The notes under the pieces: generated by a model
Databases searched by the model: none
The model's input: the letters and a program-made list of their open reading frames with translations, nothing else
What the model was told of the DNA's origin: nothing
Assembly (NCBI GenBank): GCA_000004695.1
Contig: CM000155.2
Span: forward strand, 3,136,001 to 3,200,000
Length of the DNA stretch: 64,000 nucleotides
From: Dictyostelium discoideum
Taxonomy: Eukaryota
Direction of reading: 5' to 3'
Shown here: piece by piece, positions 5,444 through 64,000 of the stretch
Position numbering within the stretch: the first letter of the stretch is position 1
Layout of the letters: each line of letters opens with the position of its first letter
Translations under genes and position numbers: made by a program

Positions 5444-5516
5444 GCCCAGATAGCTCAGTCGGTAGAGCGCAAGGCTTTTAACCTTGTGGTCGGGGGTTCG
5501 AGCCCCCCTTTGGGCG
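5444..5516 (+). tRNA. tRNA-Lys (anticodon UUU)
   Basis: GCCCAGATAGCTCAGTCGGTAGAGCGCAAGGCTTTTAACCTTGTGGTCGGGGGTTCGAGCCCCCCTTTGGGCG. Cloverleaf is intact and the discriminator is G. Confidence 0.9.
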
Positions 5517-37625: not shown

Positions 37626-37696
37626 CGCCGTGATAGTATAGTGGTAGTACATCAGATTGTGGCTCTGTTGACCCTGGTTCGATTCCAGGTCGCGGC
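37626..37696 (+). tRNA. tRNA-His (anticodon GUG)
   Basis: GCCGTGATAGTATAGTGGTAGTACATCAGATTGTGGCTCTGTTGACCCTGGTTCGATTCCAGGTCGCGGCA aligns to the canonical tRNA-His (anticodon loop TTGTGGC, discriminator A). There is one T-T mismatch in the anticodon stem. Confidence 0.8.
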
Positions 37697-37729
37697 ACTT
37701 TTTTTTGGCAGAAACCAAAATAGATCAAG

Positions 37730-46026: not shown

Positions 46027-46147
46027 TCTTTTTTTTATATGAAAAATGAAATAATCAAATAAAAAAAGTGTTGTTGTTGATGTTTTTTCTCTTACTCTCA
46101 ACTATTAATTTTATAAAGTAACTTTATTACAACTTTTCATCAAAAAT

Positions 46148-46220
46148 GCCTGGATGGCTCAGTAGGCAGAGCGAGCGGCTGTTAACCGCTAGGTCCATGG
46201 TTCGATCCCATGTCTAGGCG
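46148..46220 (+). tRNA. tRNA-Asn (anticodon GUU)
   Basis: GCCTGGATGGCTCAGTAGGCAGAGCGAGCGGCTGTTAACCGCTAGGTCCATGGTTCGATCCCATGTCTAGGCG. Cloverleaf is intact, the anticodon loop is CTGTTAA, and the discriminator is G. Confidence 0.9.
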
Positions 46221-46250
46221 AGCTTTTAGGAAAATTTTCAATAGATCGCT

Positions 46251-54336: not shown

Positions 54337-55311
54337 TTAAGGATAAATTGAAGAAGATTTTTTAGCTAAAGATTGAAATTGTTGAGATTCAGTCATACCT
54401 CTACCACTACCAATAACACCTACTTTACTATGAATACCATCACCAGTTGAAAACATTGAAGTCTTTTTTCTATCAGTAAAAGTGCCAGGTATAGATTTCT
54501 TTGGTTTATTTACGAAATCTTTCCAAGCTTGAGTTTTTTGTTTACCTTCTTCTTCAACTTTTTTCAAACGATTCATAGATTTGATTGAATGAATTTTCTT
54601 TTGTTTTTGTTTTTTAACCTCTTCACTATCCTCTGGTAAAATTTTTAAAGATTTTGGAATCACTTGAATTTGATCGGGTGCTTGTAAATATTTTTTTTGT
54701 TCCAATGTTTGATTTGCTAATAATTTTAAAGATCTAGTTGGTGGTCTAATTTTATCAAATGTTAAAGTTTCCGTATTACCATAATCAGTGTATGTTACAA
54801 CAAATGTACCATCTTTATTAATTGAATCAATCTTTGCTCTATACCAAATTCCATCAACTGAATATTGTCCTTCACATACTGATCCAACTGTCATTTTTGT
54901 CTCTGAAAATGAATTATCTTCAATAATATTTGATGGTATATTATTATTATCATTATCATTAAATGTTGATTTTTTATTAATTGTTGGTGGTGGTATTATT
55001 ATATTATTATTTTTAAATTCTGAAGAAGAATTAAAATTGTTATTACTATTATTATTATTTGTATTATTTACTGCTACACTAGTAGAATTGATAGGAGTAG
55101 TTACATTGTTAATTATATTATTGGTTTCTTTTTCTCTTTGTTTCTTTATAATTAAATCTGTTGTTGTTTTTATAATTGTAATTAAATCATTTTTTAATGT
55201 TTGTAATTCATCATCGTTATTATCCTCTTCTAATAATGCTTCAATTTCAAGAAGCTCTGTTTTATCTTGTTTTAATTTATTTTCTAAATCTTCAATAGAA
55301 TATGATTCCAT
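54337..55311 (-). CDS. SPF30 / SMNDC1-like splicing factor with a Tudor domain, 324 aa
   Basis: The Tudor core is VGSVCEGQYSVDGIWYRAKIDSINKDGTFVVTYTDYGNTETL. There is an N-terminal coiled coil. The C-terminal KVGVIGSGRGMTESQQFQ resembles the SPF30 tail. Confidence 0.7.
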   Translation of the reverse strand: MESYSIEDLENKLKQDKTELLEIEALLEEDNNDDELQTLKNDLITIIKTTTDLIIKKQREKETNNIINNVTTPINSTSVAVNNTNNNNSNNNFNSSSEFKNNNIIIPPPTINKKSTFNDNDNNNIPSNIIEDNSFSETKMTVGSVCEGQYSVDGIWYRAKIDSINKDGTFVVTYTDYGNTETLTFDKIRPPTRSLKLLANQTLEQKKYLQAPDQIQVIPKSLKILPEDSEEVKKQKQKKIHSIKSMNRLKKVEEEGKQKTQAWKDFVNKPKKSIPGTFTDRKKTSMFSTGDGIHSKVGVIGSGRGMTESQQFQSLAKKSSSIYP

Positions 55312-57286: not shown

Positions 57287-58119
57287 TTTTAATTTTCTTG
57301 ATTTGGTAAAACTAAAGGAGTTGATGGATCATAAGGTTTAATTAAAAGTTCAGAGAATAATTTTAATGATGGTACACCTCTAACTTCTGCCTTTAATAAA
57401 GGTAATTTAGTGACATGAAAATCGAAATATAAATCAGCGATTTGATCCAAATATTTCTTTTGCATCTTTTGTCTTGCATTACATAAACTACAATCCTTTT
57501 CTGGATAAACGATTTGATTTACAATTACATTATGAACATCAATATCTAATTTTGTTAATTGTTGAATTAATCTTTCTGTTTCATATACTGATAAAAATTC
57601 TGGTATACAAACTGGAATAAATGTTGTTAAATCCTAAATAAAAATAAAAAAATAAAAAATAAATTAATTTCTTTATATCTAAGTATATTTTATATATTTG
57701 TTTTATATATATAAAACTTACTGGATTTTTAAATTGAATATTAATTTCTTCAATAACTTTTTTAGTTGATTGAATTTTACCTTCCATATTTTCTAAAGAT
57801 GGTGCATTACCACCCATCATACCAGATACAGCATTGAAAATACCAGAAAAGTTTTGTTGCATTGATAAGAATTTATTAATACCTTTATCTAATAATGATG
57901 GAATTGAGAGTAATCTAAGGGTATGACCAGTTGGTGCTGTATCGAAAACTACCACTGAAAATTCTAATGATTTAACCAATTTCATAACTTCTGCAAAACT
58001 CATTGCTTCATCAATACCTGGTATAGCTGCTGTAAATTCTTGTAAATTAAATCCATCTGATTGTGTTTCCATAAATTCTGGTGCTAATTGATCTGGTGTT
58101 GGGTCAATTTCCTACAGTG

Positions 58120-58190
<71 letters not shown>

Positions 58191-58505
58191 ATACACATAT
58201 TATTAATATATAAATAATAACTAATTAATAAATAAATAATAATAATTTACCATTGCAAATAAATTTGTAAAACCTTCAACTAAAGTTGGTGATTTTGTAA
58301 ATTTTTGACCAAATGCATCACTAAGATTATGTGCTGGATCAGTTGAAATTAATAAAACTGATTCTTTAACTTTTGATAATTGAATTGCAACACTACAACT
58401 TGTGGTAGTTTTACCTACACCACCTTTACCACCTACAAAAATCCATTTTAATTTCTCGCTATTTATAATGTTTTCAATAGTTGGTTCAAATTCATCATCA
58501 GCCAT
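57279..58505 (-). CDS. get3: GET3 / ArsA (TRC40) tail-anchored-protein targeting ATPase, 329 aa. Exons: complement(58251..58505), complement(57722..58111) and complement(57279..57623).
   Basis: P-loop [24 protein letters not shown], then [15 protein letters not shown], then [12 protein letters not shown], and the CxxC dimer motif DCSLCNAR in exon 3. Donors are GTAAAT and GTAAGT, and the phases are consistent. Intron 1 holds a (TAAA)17 repeat. Confidence 0.85.
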
Positions 58506-59273: not shown

Positions 59274-59720
59274 ATGAAAGTCTCAAATATTTTATTATTA
59301 ATTGCAACTATTATCTGTATCTTTAGTTTTACCAATGGAAAAGTGAATCATGGTACACCAGATCAAGGTGAAATTAACTATTGTAATATGTGTAATGTTA
59401 CAACTCAATGCGCTCATGGTACCGATCATAACTGTGTTGATGTCACATTAAATAAATGTACATCAGTAACCAATACCTGCGATAACTCTCAATTCTATAC
59501 CATTGTAACTCAAGAAGGTAGTACTGTCTCCACAAGAAAGTATCAAAATGCCAATTGTACCACCGAAGTTGTCAACACCTTTACCACCGTATCTTGTGGT
59601 AGTTGTTCAAGTTCCGGTGAAATCCAAGTACTCTGTGCTGCTGATGATGATTCAAGCTCTACTTTAGTTTATCCTTCAATCTTTTTGATTGTAATGATTT
59701 TAATTTCTTTAATCTTTTAA
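59274..59720 (+). CDS. Ponticulin-like GPI-anchored protein, 148 aa
   Basis: A signal peptide, a Cys-rich domain (CNMCNVTTQCAHGTDHNCVD...), and a hydrophobic GPI-signal tail. Confidence 0.6.
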   Translation: MKVSNILLLIATIICIFSFTNGKVNHGTPDQGEINYCNMCNVTTQCAHGTDHNCVDVTLNKCTSVTNTCDNSQFYTIVTQEGSTVSTRKYQNANCTTEVVNTFTTVSCGSCSSSGEIQVLCAADDDSSSTLVYPSIFLIVMILISLIF

Positions 59721-61650: not shown

Positions 61651-62629
61651 AAAATTGGAATTAAATATTCCTGGTTGGAGTGAAATGGTGAATATTTCAT
61701 AAAAAATCCGTTTAAAGGTGCAGTTGGTGATTCACATAATGTTTTATTTTTATTAATATTATTATGAAATCCTCCTCAAGCATTAAAAAAATTGTTGATT
61801 ACAAAAAAACCTTAAAACTTCAACCAGTTTTAAAAATAAAATTATTATTATTGTTTTTTTTATTGATTTATTGTTTTTGGAATCCTGGTCTTTTCCAAAA
61901 AAAAAAACAGCAAAAAATTTGTTTTTTTTTTTTTTCATTTTTCACATTTTTTTTTTTTTTTTTTATTTTTTATTTTTTTTTTTTTATTTTTCTCAACACT
62001 CAACCAGTCTTTGTAACTTTTTTTTTTTATTTTATTTTTTATTTTTTATTATTTTTTTTATTTTTTTTTTTATTTTTTTAAATACCATTTTTTTAAAATA
62101 AAAAAAAAAAAAAAAATATTCCATAATCTAACAAATAAATAAATCAAATAGATAATAATAATAATAATTATTAAAAAAAAAAAAAAAAAAATAAATAATA
62201 ATAATATTTGCACTCAGAACCAAAAACAATTGTTTTTTTTTTAGGCCTGGGGTAGGTTAAAAATTTGAAAATTTTATTTATTTTTATTTTTTTTTATTTT
62301 TTTTTATTTTTTTGTTTTTTTATTTTTTTTATTTTTATTTTTTCAATATTCTAATCTTTTTTATTTAAAACACATTTTGTATATAAAAAAACATAGTTTT
62401 TTTATTACTTTTTTTTTTTTTTATTTGTTTTATATTAATAATTTTTTTTTAGATTTTTAATTTTTTGTTTTTTTTTACGAACATTTCCTAAAAAAAAGAG
62501 AAAAAAAAAAAAAAAAAAAAACAAACAAAAAAAACAATACACACAAACAATACCACCACAACACCAATAATTATAATACCTACGAAATAATATAAATAAA
62601 AAAAATAAAAAAAACACTAAAATACAATA

Positions 62630-64000
62630 ATGGGTTTCGATGATGGATCATTCAATAGTCAAAGTTATAGTACTTCATTTAATAGTTTAAATAATTTCTA
62701 TATTCCTCTTAACCAATCACAACAACCACAACAACAATCTCAAGTACAACAACAACAACCACCAACACAACAAGTACAACAAAACAATGAATTATTATCA
62801 AGTGGTGGTATTCAAAACAATTCTGATATTGTTGTAAATAATAATCCAGTATTTCAAAATCTAAACTTAGGTCATTTAGGTGCTGATAAAATTATTTATG
62901 AAGGTATGTAAATTTTTAAAATTTTTAAAATTTTATATAAAAAATAAATAAATAAATAATAATACTAATTTTTTTTATTTTATTTTTTTTAGGTTTATTA
63001 ATTAAACAAACTAAAATTTTAAAGAGATGGGATCCAAAATATTTTTGTTTATTAAATTCATCACTTATTAATTTTTATGATACAACAAAAACTCGTGTTC
63101 ATCGTGTTTTCTATTTGGATCAAATTTCAATTTCATACAAGAAAATGGCGACTGATACAGAGATAAAAATATGTTTATTAATTCAAGATAGTGGTCGTAC
63201 TCATTATCTTTATTCACAAATTCCAAATCAAACTGAAGCTTGGATTAATGCTTTAGTTACACAAAAAAAGATTTTAATGCAAGCAAAATCAAATCAATTC
63301 TTAATGAATTCAACTCCATCTTATCCTTCATTCCCATTATCAACTTCACCACCACCATATTATAATAACAATAATAATAGTAATAATGGTAATAGTTTTG
63401 GTATGATGATTGAGCAAGCTCAACAACAAGCTCAACAACAAGCACAACAACAACAAGCACAATTATCACAATCATATCAACAACAACAACAACAACCATC
63501 AGTTGTTAATAATACTTATAACTTTTATTCATATCAACCACAACCACAACCATATCAACCACAATATAATATTCCAATTGATAGGTCAGTTGATCCAAAT
63601 ATTTTATTTAATAATAATACTGGTTTCATTCAACAACAACAACAATTACAATTACAAGCTGCTGCTCAGCAACAATATCAACAACAACAACAACCACAAC
63701 AATCTAATAATAATAATAATAATAATGATGTTCAATGGATTCAACATAAAGTTTTAACAACTGATACATTGGCTGGTATTGCAATTAAATATAATACTAC
63801 AATTGATGTAATTAAAAGAATTAATTTAATTCAAGGTAATAATTGTATTAGTCATCAAACTTTATTGGTACCTTCATCTGGTGTTGTTAATTATCAACCA
63901 CAACAAGTTCAACAACCAGCCAACTCTGAGGATGAAAGAAAGAGAAAGCTCATTCAATTGTTTGCTGTATCTGAAAACATCTCAAAGGAAGAGGCTAGAT
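62630..64000 (+). CDS. PH-domain plus LysM-domain protein whose 3' end lies beyond the window. Exons: 62630..62903 and 62993..>64000.
   Basis: The donor is GTATGT and the acceptor is TTTTTTAG. Exon 2 encodes LLIKQTKILKRWDPKYFCLLNSSLINFYD...EAWINALV (PH-like), then poly-Q, then VQWIQHKVLTTDTLAGIAIKYNTTIDVIKRINLIQGNNCISHQTLLVP (LysM). Confidence 0.55.

Follow-up and report, generated by a model that had tools for sequence, protein, structure and literature searches.

The 64,000-nucleotide (nt) stretch of Dictyostelium discoideum DNA analysed here, which we call the window (contig CM000155.2 of GCA_000004695.1, positions 3,136,001 to 3,200,000 of the forward strand), ends inside a plus-strand protein-coding gene that starts at position 62630. 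A first-pass annotation, made from the letters alone, had read this gene as two exons encoding a cytosolic-looking protein in which a PH domain, Q-rich linkers and a LysM domain follow one another. It considered this an unusual combination that might suit an intracellular sensor or adaptor, perhaps linked to bacterial feeding. With the rest of the gene recovered, the product is almost certainly a 457-amino-acid (aa) soluble protein of PH–LysM–UBA-like architecture, in which three small folded modules are strung on long Q/N-rich disordered linkers. The features of the gene and its product are listed here, with the confidence of the structural models given as the predicted local distance difference test (pLDDT).

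62630 to 62903, plus strand: exon 1 (274 nt), start codon at 62630; encodes the Q/N-rich disordered N-terminus and the first PH strand
62904 to 62992, plus strand: intron (89 nt, GTATGT...TTTTAG, AT-rich), identical in the near-identical public contig L001
62993 to 64000, plus strand: exon 2, which runs past the window end with no stop inside the window
62630 to 62887, plus strand: N-terminal low-complexity Q/N/S-rich region (aa 1-86), predicted disordered, pLDDT ~30
62837 to 62872, plus strand: short conserved motif NNPVFQNLNLG (aa 70-81), directly upstream of the PH domain; consensus NNPIYQNLNFG
62888 to 63309, plus strand: PH domain (aa 87-197), interrupted by the intron; seven β-strands and a C-terminal helix with a conserved Trp (EAWINAL)
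63310 to 63732, plus strand: central Q/N/P/Y-rich linker (aa 198-338), pLDDT mostly <50, not alignable among orthologues
63733 to 63876, plus strand: LysM domain (aa 339-386), βααβ, of the eukaryotic LYSMD1-like type
63877 to 63927, plus strand: short flexible linker between the LysM and UBA-like domains (aa 387-403), pLDDT <50 in both models
63928 to 64000, plus strand: start of the UBA-like three-helix bundle, first helix and part of the second (aa 404-427 of ~404-453)

The gene and its three modules

The locus is confirmed as a real, ordinary two-exon protein-coding gene that is truncated by the end of the window. The unspliced reading frame from the ATG at 62630 hits a stop at 62911, whereas joining 62630-62903 to 62993 keeps the frame, and eight dictyostelid orthologues align across the splice junction without a gap. 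On a near-identical public contig (L001; NCBI GCA_054883475.1), which we retrieved via the complete neighbouring gene at 59274-59720, a gene call made independently has the same start, the same intron and a product of 457 aa; the splice model of the first-pass annotation is thus matched exactly. The window encodes residues 1-427 of these 457, or the 5' 93% of the gene. Because this window product equals the first 427 residues of the L001 protein, the coding sequence past base 64000 comes to 92 nt (30 codons and a stop), and the complete protein, which the first-pass annotation had wished to see retrieved, ends in ...EEARSYLVNNDWDFAKSIKVFRDDLDWESNQKYN. While the protein is identical in the two sequences, the intergenic DNA (~61700-62629 in the window, ~12400-13325 in L001) differs by ~31 nt of homopolymer-length indels, so that either the two come from separate strains or assemblies, or their long A/T runs have been resolved in different ways. 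The window has the 23% GC, long homopolymer tracts and Q/N-rich coding DNA typical of Dictyostelium. Minus-strand open reading frames (ORFs) within 62630-64000 were rejected as genes: none exceeds 80 aa, and their V-rich translations mirror the Q-rich frame.

Q makes up 17% of the protein and N 12% (29% of residues are one or the other), and about 60% of the chain is Q/N/P/Y-rich, unalignable among orthologues and predicted to be disordered. In the AlphaFold model the central linker (aa 198-338) forms one low-confidence poly-Q helix and is otherwise predicted to be disordered; the predicted template modelling score of the whole protein (0.28) is uninformative on inter-domain packing, and we therefore used the per-domain parts alone. 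No signal peptide or membrane-spanning segment was found: the N-terminus is hydrophilic, and the Kyte-Doolittle mean over 19 residues peaks at 0.64. The lack of any hydrophobic segment leads us to expect a soluble protein of the cytosol or nucleus, in keeping with the cytosolic look that had been noted from the letters. N-myristoylation, considered on account of an invariant Met1-Gly2, was rejected under the PROSITE-type rule, given a Phe at position 2 after the Gly in this protein and a Glu at position 5 in the other species.

Set against these linkers, the folded segments are well kept. The PH and LysM segments are 55–75% identical across Dictyostelia while the linkers cannot be aligned, a pattern which, judged from the alignments, is conservation under selection, with chance matches excluded. 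Just upstream of the PH domain, the short motif NNP(I/V)(Y/F)QNLN(F/L)G has invariant columns at N71, N72, P73, Q76, N79 and G81. As a separate observation, part of it resembles the NPx[YF] motif of PTB-type recognition, reading NPIY in most species, NPVF here and NPIL in Tieghemostelium.

The PH domain scores 36.6 bits against Pfam PF00169 (gathering cut-off 25.1; E 7e-9, aa 89-180), and the same family is matched in eight of eight orthologues. AlphaFold places strands within aa 87-165 and a helix at aa 169-197 (pLDDT 70-80), in which W175 is invariant in the orthologue alignment. The top Foldseek matches of the modelled domain are all PH domains (GRK2, TAPP1, FAPP1, DAPP1, AKT). A profile of the PH family likewise matched the solved structures of TAPP1 (3.7e-5) and DAPP1 (9.4e-5), with PLEKHA6, FAPP1, centaurin-α1 and AKT1 also among the nearest. 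The PH call made from the letters therefore holds in both profile and predicted fold, the PH domains of TAPP1, DAPP1, FAPP1 and AKT being the best matches by either measure. The domain carries a net charge of +7, and its basic β1-β2 segment has five K/R residues (LLIKQTKILKRWDPKYF) as against seven to eight in other dictyostelids (ILKKQGKTLGLWAKRRF). The β1 Lys and one basic residue of β2 (+3 after the Trp) are kept from the lipid signature. Unlike the phosphoinositide-binding domains just named, though, this PH has the signature incomplete, with an Asp at +1 and a Pro at +2. Docking on membranes through the PH domain is thus plausible, but its lipid specificity is not readable from the sequence.

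The LysM call is borderline for this single protein and secure at the level of the family. Against Pfam PF01476 (cut-off 20.9 bits) the 427-aa fragment scored 20.1 bits and the full 457 aa 19.9, while the isolated C-terminal piece alone scored 23.7. Thus the profile check of the spliced protein that the first-pass annotation had proposed puts the PH domain above its cut-off and the LysM just below, the latter with support from the family. LysM was matched in eight of eight orthologues at E <= 1 (best E 8e-6), and the family profile matched LytE of Bacillus subtilis (1.7e-11) and the LysM of human LYSMD1 (2djp, 5e-7). The lead sequence used to model the LysM–UBA-like segment is identical to the C-terminal module of the window species over 121 residues. 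In that model the LysM takes the βααβ form (pLDDT 83-90) and superposes on LysM domains in Foldseek at a root-mean-square deviation (rmsd) of ~1.6-2.2 Å, the best match again being LYSMD1 (2djp). The canonical DTL...Y....I...N...L.(V/I)P pattern is retained.

The third module was absent from the first-pass annotation, and its first 24 residues are all that the window holds of the conserved tail EDERKRKLIQLFAVSENISKEEARSYLVNNDWDFAKSIKVFRDDLDWE. Modelled in full, it consists of three helices (68-83, 87-96 and 101-117 in model numbering) at pLDDT 90-96. In Foldseek this bundle superposed on the UBA domain of TDP2 with an rmsd of 0.5 Å over 38 columns (structure 6q00, titled as a UBA domain bound to ubiquitin) and on the UBA domain of UBALD2 with 1.2 Å over 47. 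The family profile matched the UBA of p47 (4.3e-6), TDP2 (1e-4), Dcn1 (1.9e-4) and FAF1 (1.5e-3). By Pfam PF14555 (UBA_4), the isolated C-terminus of the window species scored 16.8 bits, below the cut-off of 21.8; UBA_4 was matched in five of eight dictyostelid orthologues, and non-dictyostelid relatives scored up to 35.3 bits (P0087). The matched domains of p47, TDP2, Dcn1 and FAF1 are ubiquitin-binding UBA domains, and membership of this class would therefore make binding of ubiquitin or a ubiquitin-like protein the default expectation. The likeness to the UBA_4-type domains of p47/NSFL1C, FAF1, Dcn1 and TDP2, by profile and by fold, is one of domains alone, as Pfam scans found none of the partner domains of these proteins in the window protein.

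Relatives and domain history

A full-length homology search returned at least seven dictyostelid orthologues, with no D. discoideum entry among the matches listed. Among the proteins listed, that of D. firmibasis is the closest (88% identity by BLASTP, 95% in the alignment), and the others are from D. purpureum, Polysphondylium, Tieghemostelium, Heterostelium and Synstelium. Public records of the orthologues already bear PH and LysM Pfam labels, with LysM in the precomputed lists for three of the seven.

An exhaustive search with a LysM and UBA-like profile found 5580 LysM proteins, mostly bacterial proteins with multiple LysM domains, together with a small set that matches the LysM–linker–UBA-like profile over its full length in a single stretch. 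Beyond the dictyostelids, this tandem occurs in Cochliopodium (Amoebozoa), in Anisonema (Euglenozoa), in an MMETSP transcript and in metagenomic or transcriptomic sequences of unspecified origin. The window protein fits the same layout of a LysM, a short linker and a UBA-like domain with a conserved YL..(N)DWD...D..WE tail. In a transcript of Anisonema acinus (P0033), two complete LysM–UBA-like tandems stand in a row (aa 91-211 and 245-364), and the pair therefore behaves as a single duplicating unit.

Five of the non-dictyostelid tandem proteins carry, in addition, a CHORD-like domain, whole or interrupted by the end of a contig. It is recognizable in the relatives as an upstream Cys/His motif (C-x2-C...C-x-Y-H...W-x-C-C...C...H-x-E-D..T..IL), whose profile matched the CHORD of CHORDC1 (2.7e-7), CHORD-II of RAR1 (1.3e-6) and, more weakly, the BTK motif. 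The CHORD-like domain is present in P0123, P0124 and P0153 and also in five dictyostelid proteins (P0003-P0007; non-group-4 species, aa ~63-156, upstream of the PH domain), so that these non-group-4 orthologues retain both the domain and the HxED..T..IL tail of the protist family. In contrast, the alignment shows it to be absent from the window protein and from those of D. firmibasis and D. purpureum, where Q-rich sequence stands in its place; in Synstelium it is largely lost and the HxED..T..IL tail alone remains. We considered a missed upstream exon encoding this domain and rejected it, as no frame of the window gives a W.CC-type coding match and the 900 nt upstream of the gene (~61700-62629) are homopolymer-rich non-coding DNA. 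Compared with the protist proteins of CHORD-like–LysM–UBA-like type (e.g. that of Cochliopodium minus, EP01091_P007545, P0123), with which it shares a homologous tandem and the invariant YL...DW... and D..WE tail, the window protein has an added PH domain and is without the CHORD-like zinc domain.

The PH profile matched the eight dictyostelid proteins alone among the 160 proteins compared, a set that draws on the 150 best representatives from a single profile search. The most economical reading of this limited sample is that the ancestor would have been a protist protein of CHORD-like–LysM–UBA-like form, that a PH domain was probably inserted between the zinc domain and the LysM in the dictyostelid stem, and that the lineage leading to the window species, D. 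firmibasis and D. purpureum may then have lost the CHORD-like zinc domain. Our literature search found no description of a PH–LysM–UBA-like protein or of a CHORD-like–LysM–UBA-like family, and the latter, spread over several protist lineages, appears to be undescribed.

Possible functions

The nearest points of comparison are the cytosolic LysM proteins of animals. LYSMD1 and LYSMD2 (LMD-2 in Caenorhabditis elegans) resemble the window protein in having no signal peptide and a single LysM amid disordered sequence; to our knowledge they have no PH or UBA-like domain. The proteins OXR1, NCOA7 and LMD-3 share with it an intracellular location and the pairing of a LysM with a lipid-binding-type module, in their case GRAM, a phosphoinositide-binding domain with a PH-like fold. 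The order is reversed, however, with the PH domain preceding the LysM in the window protein, and the window module scores as a classical PH (PF00169) rather than as GRAM. LYSMD1/2 and LMD-2 bind HPS1/GLO-3 of BLOC-3 and stimulate its activity as a guanine nucleotide exchange factor (GEF) for Rab32 (PMC11289520). OXR1, NCOA7 and LMD-3 combine LysM and lipid-binding GRAM with a TLDc domain that binds the V-ATPase, and act on membranes of the Golgi, the trans-Golgi network and lysosomes (PMC12146697, PMC12652258). The cytosolic LysM proteins that have been characterised thus work at endomembranes, and do so by contacting other proteins. A Pfam scan of the full 457 aa of the window protein found no TLDc domain, a UBA-like C-terminus being present instead, and regulation of the V-ATPase is therefore not expected of it.

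These precedents bear on what had been claimed for the gene. The combination of PH and LysM is real, but its unusualness was overstated in the first-pass annotation, since cytosolic LysM proteins (LYSMD1/2) and proteins joining LysM to GRAM (OXR1/NCOA7) are known. That annotation had described LysM as usually extracellular in eukaryotes; a cytosolic LysM is established for LYSMD1/2 and LMD-2 (PMC11289520). We regard the architecture as moderately unusual, all three domains coming from well-known families. What we have not found described is the PH–LysM–UBA-like arrangement itself, its restriction to dictyostelids in our sample and the wider CHORD-like–LysM–UBA-like family of protists.

The reading that we prefer is that the protein would act as a cytosolic scaffold or adaptor. 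Its basic PH domain would dock it on an acidic-lipid membrane, most plausibly that of an endosome, phagosome or lysosome, the analogy being with every cytosolic LysM protein so far characterised. The UBA-like domain is predicted to bind ubiquitin, or a ubiquitylated or ubiquitin-like partner. A third surface would come from the LysM, whose ligand would be either a protein, as when LYSMD1/2 bind HPS1, or a glycan containing N-acetylglucosamine (GlcNAc). Flexible linkers may allow all three modules to engage their ligands simultaneously. The adaptor proposed from the letters thus gains from the discovery of a third binding module. Taken as a whole (the gene, its three modules, their inferred history and the adaptor mechanism), this is the best explanation we can offer, and we judge it about evenly balanced between right and wrong. 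The specific mechanism, in which a cytosolic adaptor ties endo-, phago- or lysosomal membranes to ubiquitylated partners, is drawn by analogy and is more tentative, and we would sooner expect it to need revision than to stand.

Several points weigh against this account. On the one hand, there are those that concern the PH domain. Of the canonical 3-phosphoinositide signature K..W-[KR]-x-R it keeps a part, reading RW-D-P-K-YF, with the Asp sitting where aligned TAPP1 has a Lys and where Akt has an Arg, and specific lipid binding is confined to a minority of PH domains. On the other hand, there are those that concern the other modules and the setting. For the window species the Pfam scores of the LysM (20.1 against 20.9 bits) and of UBA_4 (16.8 against 21.8) fall slightly below the cut-offs; both calls draw their support from the profiles of the family and from the predicted folds. 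The endolysosomal location is an analogy alone, and the dictyostelid restriction of the PH domain is bounded by the sample described above. In C. elegans LMD-3, moreover, both the LysM and GRAM were dispensable for the phenotypes scored (PMC12652258), so that modules of this type can be functionally minor.

The bacterial diet that the first-pass annotation invoked suggests a different use of the same parts, namely as an intracellular sensor of bacterial cell-wall or chitin fragments. The ligands of the LysM would be peptidoglycan or GlcNAc oligomers arriving in the cytosol from phagosomes, the PH domain would sit on the phagosomal membrane, and through the UBA-like domain detection would be tied to responses that depend on ubiquitin, such as xenophagy. 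Dictyostelids are bacterivores, the canonical LysM pattern is kept, the predicted fold superposes at ~2 Å on chitin- and peptidoglycan-binding LysM domains, and the additional UBA-like domain fits a ubiquitin-linked response. A further point in its favour would be a D. discoideum LysM gene, DDB0218607, which supplementary file 6 of Sillo et al. (2008; PMC2443395) gives as 32-fold higher in the wild strain V12M2 grown on bacteria; it is listed there as a membrane protein and could not be matched to the window gene. Peptidoglycan binding is not known for any cytosolic eukaryotic LysM protein, however, and LYSMD1/2 work via protein contacts with BLOC-3 (PMC11289520). The LysM–UBA-like core also occurs in several other protists. 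We consider a sensor of this kind unlikely.

The protein might instead be the functional counterpart of animal LYSMD1/2 (LMD-2 of C. elegans), binding a Rab32-family GEF of the HPS1/HPS4 type and promoting the biogenesis of lysosome-related organelles, in which case the PH domain would add membrane targeting. Human LYSMD1 is indeed the closest solved LysM by both profile and fold. LYSMD1/2 are cytosolic, have a single LysM in an otherwise disordered chain and act on endolysosomal membranes (PMC11289520). Nevertheless, the likeness spans a LysM of ~45 residues, the solved chain with which it was compared being the LysM alone. Furthermore, PMC11289520 describes LYSMD1/2 as LysM-domain proteins alone and, in the parts consulted, does not map the binding of HPS1 to the LysM. 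We thus regard such a counterpart as improbable.

A role away from membranes can be built on the history of the family. As the heir of a CHORD-like–LysM–UBA-like ancestor, the protein might be a soluble proteostasis factor, cytosolic or nuclear, that connects clients of HSP90-type chaperones with the ubiquitin system, its PH domain serving to bind proteins rather than lipids. The CHORD domains of RAR1 and CHORDC1 bind HSP90, and p47-, FAF1- and Dcn1-type UBA domains, which the UBA-like domain resembles, belong to ubiquitin, p97 and cullin pathways. The ancestral architecture includes a CHORD-like domain and the lipid signature of the PH is incomplete, both of which agree with such a role. Yet the window protein has no CHORD-like domain, so that any link to HSP90 would have been lost from it, and HSP90 binding in the family is itself putative. 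This role therefore seems to us distinctly unlikely.

At its most far-reaching, the sensor idea would extend beyond dictyostelids. The LysM–UBA-like tandem could be the core of an undescribed and widespread protist family of cytosolic glycan readers, in which the LysM would read GlcNAc-containing material (such as pieces of peptidoglycan or chitin that escape from damaged phagosomes), the UBA-like domain would bring in the ubiquitin or xenophagy machinery, and the dictyostelid PH domain would station the sensor on phagosomal membranes. We think this very improbable; if true, the family would be an ancient cell-autonomous immune sensor, analogous but unrelated to the NOD and PGRP receptors of animals. 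Finally, a reading in which AT-rich sequence of low complexity has produced spurious domain calls and there is no real multi-domain gene, as the sub-threshold LysM and UBA_4 scores and the 29% of Q or N might suggest, is effectively refuted by conservation and the profile results, because the folded segments are not of low complexity, are conserved in eight dictyostelid species and beyond, give significant profile matches to solved structures, are modelled at pLDDT 70-96 and lie in a gene on which an independent call agrees.

The intracellular role of eukaryotic LysM domains is largely open, LYSMD1/2 having been tied to Rab32 activation (PMC11289520) and OXR1/NCOA7 to regulation of the V-ATPase (PMC12146697). 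A protein of a tractable amoeba that joins a LYSMD1-like LysM to PH and UBA-like domains provides a simple test system for whether such a LysM reads glycans or proteins, and can also probe whether a cytosolic LysM links membranes to ubiquitin signalling. As the PH and LysM domains of this hypothetical protein are already visible in public automatic annotation, we see the result as useful rather than surprising.

Genomic surroundings

Several other genes lie in the window.

54337 to 55311, minus strand: gene for a Tudor/SMN-type protein
from ~55821 (6567-7533 in L001), minus strand: gene for a protein with a weak CBM49 match
~57300 to 58505, minus strand: multi-exon gene for an ArsA/GET3-type ATPase
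59274 to 59720, plus strand: gene for a 148-aa Cys-rich secreted-type protein with a hydrophobic signal-like N-terminus and a hydrophobic C-terminal tail like that of a glycosylphosphatidylinositol anchor; no Pfam match on record
1397 to 1469, 5444 to 5516, 37627 to 37698 and 46147 to 46221: tRNA genes

The product of the gene at 59274-59720 may, we presume, be ponticulin-like. On the other side of the PH–LysM–UBA-like gene, its downstream neighbour in L001 is a mitochondrial carrier gene. Among these neighbouring genes there is no sign of co-functional clustering, and they give no hint of function. Farther away, a 1504-aa ORF with Exo_endo_phos and RVT_1 domains, a non-LTR (long terminal repeat) retrotransposon, enters L001 at 1-1901 (~49.3-51.2 kb of the window). 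Together with the tRNA genes, it recalls the tRNA-targeted TRE elements of D. discoideum.

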